Origin: Escherichia coli
Lineage (GTDB): Bacteria; Pseudomonadota; Gammaproteobacteria; Enterobacterales; Enterobacteriaceae
Direction: 5' to 3' (one strand)
Length of the DNA stretch: 36,351 nucleotides
Assembly: GCF_017348835.2 (NCBI RefSeq)
Contig: NZ_CP072313.1
Shown: piece by piece, positions 24,368 to 25,121 of the stretch
Layout: each line of letters begins with the position of its first letter
Position numbering within the stretch: the stretch's first letter is position 1
Translations under genes and position numbers: made by a program
The notes under the pieces: generated by a model
Seen by the model: the letters and a program-made list of their open reading frames with translations, nothing else
Databases searched by the model: none
Told to the model about the DNA's origin: nothing

Positions 24368-24706
24368 ATGAGCTTTATAAAAATAAACAGGCAACGTGAA
24401 TTTATGGAGCGAAGTAATTCACCACGTCTTGTACTACGAAAAGAAAAGAGAAGAAACGGTATTGTAAATTGTTATCTTTCCAAGACGGTAAGAGGCGACG
24501 ATACATTCATTACCATAGAGTTAAACCCTGAACACAATAAAATAAGATTAAAAACAACCAATTCACCAGAAGGCCATAAAATGAGTCGTGGTTGTTTTTC
24601 TCTTACTAAAGTTTTCGAATATATTTTTCATGAAAACCTTCACGAAGACAGAATTATTATTGAACTGGAGAAAAAAGAAAATGGGTGGTGGTATGGAAAT
24701 TACTAA
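24368..24706 (+). CDS. hypothetical protein (112 aa)
   Basis: ORF in the track with AAGGA Shine-Dalgarno; no family recognised. Confidence 0.4.
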   Translation: MSFIKINRQREFMERSNSPRLVLRKEKRRNGIVNCYLSKTVRGDDTFITIELNPEHNKIRLKTTNSPEGHKMSRGCFSLTKVFEYIFHENLHEDRIIIELEKKENGWWYGNY

Positions 24707-24956
24707 AAACAGAGAAACCCGATTTGTAACTCTTGCATCAGACTTTAACAATATTAAAGAAATTTATTCTGATGACGAGTTAAACCGTTTGCTGGAAGCT
24801 GTTAAGAATTGCCCGACCATAATTGTGTTGGGTTGCGCGACACAGGGAAAGAAACGCCACTTATGGCTTCTTGTTTAAGGACTACACCAGAGCGTATTTC
24901 AGTTGAAGAATTCAATGAAATTAAAGCTATTTCTTCTAAACAGAAATGACAAGTAA

Positions 24957-25121
24957 ACGCCACAGATTCCAGATTTTAATCTGGAATTTGTGGGGTTGAA
25001 CAACCGAAGGGCGTTAGTGCACATTTTGGGTAATGAATTATCAGCTCAGGAACAAAAACGCGGTTTGTGGGCCGATGCAAATCCGGTTCCACCGTGGGAG
25101 TGGCGATACAAACATAACTAA
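24957..25121 (+). pseudogene. remnant of a thermonuclease (staphylococcal-nuclease-like) gene, C-terminal about 50 codons only
   Basis: encodes ...ALVHILGNELSAQEQKRGLWADANPVPPWEWRYKHN, matching the conserved C-terminal GLW...PWEWR signature; no intact N-terminal part in any frame. Confidence 0.45.

Follow-up and report, generated by a model that had tools for sequence, protein, structure and literature searches.

The stretch of DNA analysed here, referred to as the window, is 36,351 bp long with 42.9% G+C, and it is an enterobacterial conjugative plasmid of about 36 kb, or most of one. In a family scan of its ORFs, an IncFII-type RepA, a ParA/MipZ ATPase, a PIN-domain toxin, a lytic transglycosylase, a NikA-like protein and a 1,095-aa protein with an LPD7 domain were identified. 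The nearest records are E. coli plasmids of 31-45 kb, which match the window in a mosaic fashion at 97-99.9% identity. In sibling plasmids that are 97-99.9% DNA-identical to the window, the part near the locus described below is annotated with VirB4, VirB8-11, a VirD4-type coupling protein and a type IA topoisomerase, and the window holds the corresponding ORFs. MOB-suite/PLSDB assigns the siblings to 'IncI2' and calls them only 'mobilizable', while they nevertheless encode an initiator of the IncFII-RepA family and a full VirB/VirD4 set (window 8149-9204, - strand); the typing looks unreliable for this plasmid family.

The locus itself lies in a variable accessory block, which extends from the coupling-protein/TrbM end of the VirB-type conjugation operon to the topoisomerase gene. 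In an initial annotation these neighbours had been taken for an isolated, uncharacterised operon, a description that the accessory block does not fit. The features discussed are as follows, with one distant gene of the window given first.

6491-6907: PIN-domain (VapC-type) toxin gene; a VapC family toxin is annotated there in siblings, and the gene is presumably part of a toxin-antitoxin stability module
24368-24706, + strand: lineage-specific hypothetical gene of 112 aa (WP_000008122), between the TrbM-like and 85-codon genes
24693-24949, + strand: small conserved gene whose product has 85 aa in siblings (WP_001336231); it is annotated, and unbroken, in both siblings and relatives
24839-24844, + strand: lesion found only in the window, GCGCGAACAAGGGG (6/6 siblings) changed to GCGCGACACAGGG
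24960-24993, + strand: conserved hairpin (stem of 15-16 bp, TTTT(A) loop), from folding and covariation
24992-25017, + strand: nearly invariant 26-nt motif GGGGTTGAACAACCGAAGGGCGTTAG, directly 3' of the hairpin
25042/25043, no strand: probable deletion junction …AATGAATTATC / AGCTCAGGAAC…, from pairwise blastn and multiple alignment A1
25043-25121, + strand: 3' remnant of a thermonuclease (SNase-family) gene, consisting of 1 base, 25 codons (25044-25118) and a TAA stop (25119-25121)
25137-25541, + strand: intact 134-aa gene with its own GAGG ribosome-binding site (25128-25131), untouched by the deletion

When two intact plasmid nucleases were compared with the whole window by tblastn, only their last 25 residues were matched, at 25044-25118, with 25/25 residues identical and an E value of 4.5e-14. 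These are residues 139-163 of WP_032325882 and 154-178 of WP_001576898, and no further significant match to other parts of the nuclease was obtained in any frame of the window. The string RGLWADANPVPPWEWRYKHN, followed by a stop, is encoded at 25059-25121, in the frame in which the initial annotation had read it as the C-terminal signature, and nothing more, of a staphylococcal-nuclease-like enzyme. This signature is real, isolated and far beyond chance. At the DNA level, 25043-25121 is identical at 79/79 positions to the 3' end of nuc in the IncX1 plasmid pDKX1-TEM-52 and at 78/79 positions to that of NZ_CP101201, and it is through this identity with an intact plasmid nuc, in protein as well as in DNA, that descent from a member of the SNase family is established. 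A tblastn search and a comparison with relatives carrying the intact gene had been proposed as the check on the initial reading, and both gave the predicted result.

The extent of the remnant is much smaller than had been proposed. Within the span 24696-25121, which had been assigned as a whole to the nuclease, 79 of the 426 bases (25043-25121) are nuclease-derived, and the DNA upstream of 25043 is former intergenic DNA carrying the hairpin element. The broken upstream frames, which had been read as parts of the nuclease, belong to the unrelated 85-codon gene at 24693-24949, which is not nuclease-derived, is intact in 6/6 sibling plasmids and is frameshifted in the window alone. Homologues of this gene, 83-90 aa in length, are present in IncX1, IncX4 and related plasmids, and no Pfam, NCBIfam or PADLOC family was found for it. 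Column comparison with the siblings (L003-L008) resolves the lesion at 24839-24844 into a 1-bp deletion and 2 substitutions within 6 bp, by which the gene is truncated after codon 61; this may be a true (complex) mutation or a sequencing error.

The two other neighbours differ in their distribution. The 112-aa gene is not at this position in the IncX relatives compared (L001, L002), further plasmids of the family to which the window belongs (L012, L013) carry versions of it that are about 84-85% DNA-identical, and its product gave no family hit. The 134-aa gene shares 99% identity with its counterpart downstream of intact nuc in relatives, and its product has CxxC…CxxC motifs. In several GenBank records it is named 'exodeoxyribonuclease V subunit beta', which looks like a mis-annotation, because Pfam returned zinc-ribbon hits below threshold only and NCBIfam returned none.

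The intact relatives show what kind of gene the remnant comes from. Their products match the Pfam SNase family (PF00565) over the full profile (positions 1-107) at E values of 2e-25 and 6e-26. The 'thermonuclease family protein' of IncX1, IncX4 and IncX5 plasmids comprises 163-178 aa, which include a hydrophobic leader at the N-terminus and the whole SNase domain. The intact relatives also align to S. aureus thermonuclease structures (residues 27-151; over residues 14-138 for Nuc, PDB 3sr1 and 2of1, with E about 7e-6). Their DGDT, RLINIDAPE and DRYDR motifs are at residues about 31-97, all within the part that is missing from the window; the Ca2+-binding and catalytic residues of the S. aureus enzyme are Asp21, Arg35, Asp40, Thr41, Glu43 and Arg87. 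WP_001576898 (pDKX1-TEM-52) and WP_032325882 (pEC21Z151-36K) are like the window in having the identical C-terminal 25 residues 5' of the 134-aa gene. Codons 1-138, and the membrane-protein gene before them, are present in the IncX1, IncX4 and IncX5 nuc plasmids but missing from the window. In the IncN plasmid pKM101, Nuc is another plasmid nuclease encoded beside transfer genes, and it belongs to the phospholipase-D superfamily. A PLD-type nuclease of this kind (PLD/HKD domain) was considered and rejected, as the Pfam scan of the intact relatives gave SNase only; because they match SNase and not PLD, these relatives are not homologous to pKM101 Nuc. A functional study of an IncX-type plasmid nuclease was not found in the literature.

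In the IncX1, IncX4 and IncX5 relatives examined, as well as in NZ_CP101201, a membrane-protein gene is followed by the thermonuclease gene, and among those relatives only IncX1, IncX4 and NZ_CP101201 have the small gene before the hairpin. In NZ_CP101201, as in IncX1 and IncX4 plasmids, the 134-aa gene comes directly after this gene pair; in a further IncX4 plasmid and in IncX5 plasmids, another gene follows the pair. The small membrane-protein gene is fast-diverging (L001 3349-3663, L002 3158-3592, L014 2821-3255) and is absent from the window, and in 4/6 relatives it overlaps nuc by 4 bp. The arrangement suggests that the membrane protein and the nuclease form a functional pair, perhaps for export, anchoring or immunity. 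The membrane protein gave no family above the curated cut-offs of Pfam, NCBIfam and PADLOC, and for the membrane protein and the 85-aa protein there were only weak sub-threshold matches (TraP, E 1.4e-3; VirB11, E 7.4e-3). In PADLOC and NCBIfam, the deleted genes gave only a hit to the generic SNase-like entry PDLC01096 'SNc+LTD', with NucI and EcnA far under their cut-offs.

Compared with these relatives, what is left in the window has no start codon, ribosome-binding site, signal peptide, catalytic residues or Ca2+-binding residues. The 25 residues that remain, as opposed to the about 107 profile positions of a complete SNase OB-fold domain (PF00565), begin at residue 139, beyond the catalytic and Ca2+-binding motifs. 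In staphylococcal nuclease, they would have their counterpart in the end of the last helix and the C-terminal tail (…KEKLNIWSEDN), a distant similarity, and the OB-fold barrel and the active site have no counterpart in the window. An intact orthologue is present at the same syntenic position in relatives and the flanks are collinear across the gap, as is expected of a pseudogene. The remnant is thus predicted to be a dead, non-functional pseudogene without nuclease activity, since the active site has been deleted, and no second copy of the nuclease or of the membrane-protein gene that could compensate is present in the window. It is probably untranslated; a scan of 23600-25700 gave no promoter-like site on the + strand, though read-through transcription may occur, as may translation of a 43-codon ORF with a GTG start (24990-25121) in which the remnant is contained.

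This ORF raises the question of whether a new small protein reuses the nuclease tail, ending in …PWEWRYKHN, as its frame is open across the junction without interruption and its sequence is identical in 7/7 carriers. Such a protein is considered very improbable. The ORF has no upstream Shine-Dalgarno sequence, its GTG falls in the conserved hairpin's 3' arm, codons 1-18 derive from what was intergenic DNA, and the identity among the carriers reflects recency as opposed to selection. There is no Pfam match for the 43-aa product, with no SNase at E up to 1, and PGAP gives a partial pseudogene only. The ORF is too short for SNase to be detected in it by Pfam, and homology of the tail is shown instead by tblastn and by the DNA comparison.

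The left boundary of the remnant is a sharp one. Window positions 24719-25042 match NZ_CP101201 (L001 3001-3334) at 84.8% in blastn, and positions 25043-25700 match the same record (L001 4073-4730) at 99.1%, such that a gap of 738 bp (L001 3335-4072) separates two collinear flanks at the junction, which can also be written …AATTATC / AGCTCAGG…. The first of the missing 738 bp belong to the Shine-Dalgarno sequence that serves a membrane-protein gene of 104 codons, and the last to codon 138 of a 163-codon nuc. Thus, the Shine-Dalgarno sequence and the entire membrane-protein gene are lost together with nuc codons 1-138, including the signal peptide/hydrophobic leader and all catalytic residues. 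The past rearrangement that the initial annotation had invoked is borne out by this comparison. Its description of the locus as a decayed nuclease gene is apt in so far as a remnant of a gene that is full-length in relatives is present; gradual decay, on the other hand, is not what the locus looks like, as one clean deletion would account for the loss.

We consider it very probable that one deletion in the ancestor of the lineage left the dead 3' remnant of nuc. The alternative is that the junction represents a crossover that joined the diverged left arm of one plasmid to the IncX1-like right arm of another, in which case the remnant would still be a dead fragment. This alternative would account for the jump in divergence at the junction, from 84.8% to 99.1% against NZ_CP101201 and from 80.9% to 98.7% against pDKX1-TEM-52, with the remnant itself at 79/79, and it would be in keeping with a slot that is mosaic throughout the window's plasmid family. 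However, in alignment A1 the two intact relatives are similar to each other from mature nuc onward and diverged over the small and membrane-protein genes, and because they show the same contrast mutually, the contrast need not have arisen at the deletion and does not discriminate between a deletion and a crossover. A further point against a crossover is that no repeat, insertion sequence, mobile-element sequence or recombinase site was found at the junction, where microhomology of more than 1 nt was also not seen. A crossover is regarded as unlikely, and a single deletion is preferred. We infer the exact size of this deletion and its origin within one molecule, because no direct ancestor, with intact genes and a left flank at least 95% identical, was found in PLSDB, where the best intact relatives have a left flank of 85-88% and a right flank of 99-100% identity.

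The distribution of the junction was examined with a query of 201 bp across it, which was fully covered in 6 of the 689 matching PLSDB records, all 6 being identical at the junction. The remaining matches (>680) start at the junction and extend rightward only, inside an annotated intact "thermonuclease family protein" gene, and homologues of the deleted segment are present in 1,755 PLSDB plasmids. The junction was also found in 4 of 5,426 complete E. coli genomes in RefSeq. The six PLSDB carriers were obtained in China, the USA and the UK, with pork, wastewater and humans as their sources. An artefact of assembly or sequencing in the window's record was considered in this context, as the three differences within 6 bp of the adjacent 85-codon gene are unique to the record and could be sequencing error. 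For the truncation of nuc, such an artefact has a negligible probability, given that the same junction recurs, base for base, in plasmids from different laboratories and countries, six of them in PLSDB and one more in RefSeq.

The remnant is already known at the level of annotation. In siblings, RefSeq/PGAP labels the same 78 bp as 'micrococcal nuclease / thermonuclease family protein, incomplete, missing N-terminus', a partial pseudogene; the PLSDB table omits pseudogenes. Two such siblings, NZ_CP116127 (PIB57_RS25330) and NZ_CP146686 (V9Z39_RS27130), have the same 78 bp, junction and flanking genes at 99.3-100% DNA identity, and the window is unlike them in its frameshifted 85-codon gene, with no difference in the remnant itself.

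Between the 85-codon gene and the remnant lies a structured element (24960-25017), which is inside the span first assigned to the nuclease and 25 nt upstream of the deletion junction. The hairpin at 24960-24993 folds as RNA with -29.2 kcal/mol (z = -5.85). In 11 diverse plasmid copies, 98.2% of the cells are paired and compensatory double changes are seen in 5/15 pairs, a level of covariation reached by 0/500 shuffles, as opposed to pairing of 20-53% in slid controls. Of the paired cells, 15 are G-U or U-G on the + strand, and because these would be A·C mismatches if read on the other strand, they point to an element that acts as sense-strand RNA or as + strand single-stranded DNA. The 26-nt motif occurs once in the window, where 0 occurrences are expected by chance; no variation is seen in 22 of the 26 columns, and the remaining four vary in only 1-2 of 12 copies (IncX1, X3, X4, X5 and other plasmids). 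PLSDB has 560 records with the element, none of which annotates it, and its carriers are IncX1, X3, X4 and X5 plasmids, the window's plasmid family and one IncFII Klebsiella plasmid. It is located directly 3' of the last gene of the transfer/TrbM block, or of the 85-codon gene where that is present, and homology between lineages stops right after the end of the motif, …GCGTTAG.

Several identities were tried for this element. An intrinsic terminator was rejected for the hairpin, as a scan of 23600-25700 was empty and GGGGTTGAAC… follows without a T run. Rfam gave no match over 24950-25020 at E up to 1. A loading site of the PrfaH/RfaH ops-like type has been described for IncX3 (PMC11880322), and the reading of the 26-nt motif as such a site was not borne out, the published core not being in the window at up to 3 mismatches; no NusG/RfaH-like ORF was present among ten ORFs scanned, and the resemblance to ops stays loose. 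An outer helix (AACGCC…GGCGTT) around the element is likewise unsupported, as its changes in IncX5 are not compensatory. No paper was found on the motif string or on the function of the element. Tentatively, and with less than even confidence, the element is proposed as a putative, previously undescribed cis-acting signal by which IncX-type and related plasmids mark the 3' boundary of their conjugation operon. Our best guess is that, for the transfer operon, it would act on the sense-strand RNA in 3'-end formation, processing or stability, or else be bound by a protein.

Bounded by the TrbM-like gene on one side and the DUF6012/topoisomerase genes on the other, the slot is a hotspot at which genes are deleted or replaced. 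NZ_CP103482 (L011, pMB9635_3) is 99.9% identical to the window through 24753, lacks window 24754-26174 (1.4 kb) and resumes at 26175, and NZ_CP062881 and NZ_CP129266, of the same plasmid family, have other small genes in the slot. Cargo genes directly 3' of the structured element may be repeatedly swapped or lost, the nuc deletion being one such event.

A likely history can be outlined for the preferred single deletion. In IncX-type plasmids, the slot after a TrbM/KikA-like gene commonly holds one module made up of a gene of 83-90 aa, the hairpin, a membrane-protein gene of 104-144 aa and nuc, the start of nuc mostly overlapping the stop of the membrane-protein gene. The nuc product is an SNase-fold nuclease of 163-178 aa with a hydrophobic N-terminal leader, and is presumably exported. 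An ancestor of the plasmid lineage would then have lost about 0.74 kb in one illegitimate deletion, probably a single intramolecular event, with the ribosome-binding site of the membrane-protein gene at one end and nuc codon 138 at the other. The event is likely to be recent, because the bases of the remnant still match intact genes, and the remnant would persist through this recency and through its position just upstream of the translation start of the next gene.

The remnant is an ordinary one that offers nothing new and matters little, and the hairpin element is the only mildly interesting item of the span. For annotation, the label of nuclease pseudogene belongs to 79 bp only, the frameshifted neighbour is a separate gene, and a widespread structured non-coding element lies unannotated between the two. 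For the plasmids, deletions and replacements are frequent in the slot that separates the transfer operon from the topoisomerase gene, and the loss shows that a secreted-type SNase nuclease and its partner membrane protein, homologues of which are carried by about 1,750 sequenced enterobacterial plasmids, are dispensable for persistence in at least one small plasmid lineage.
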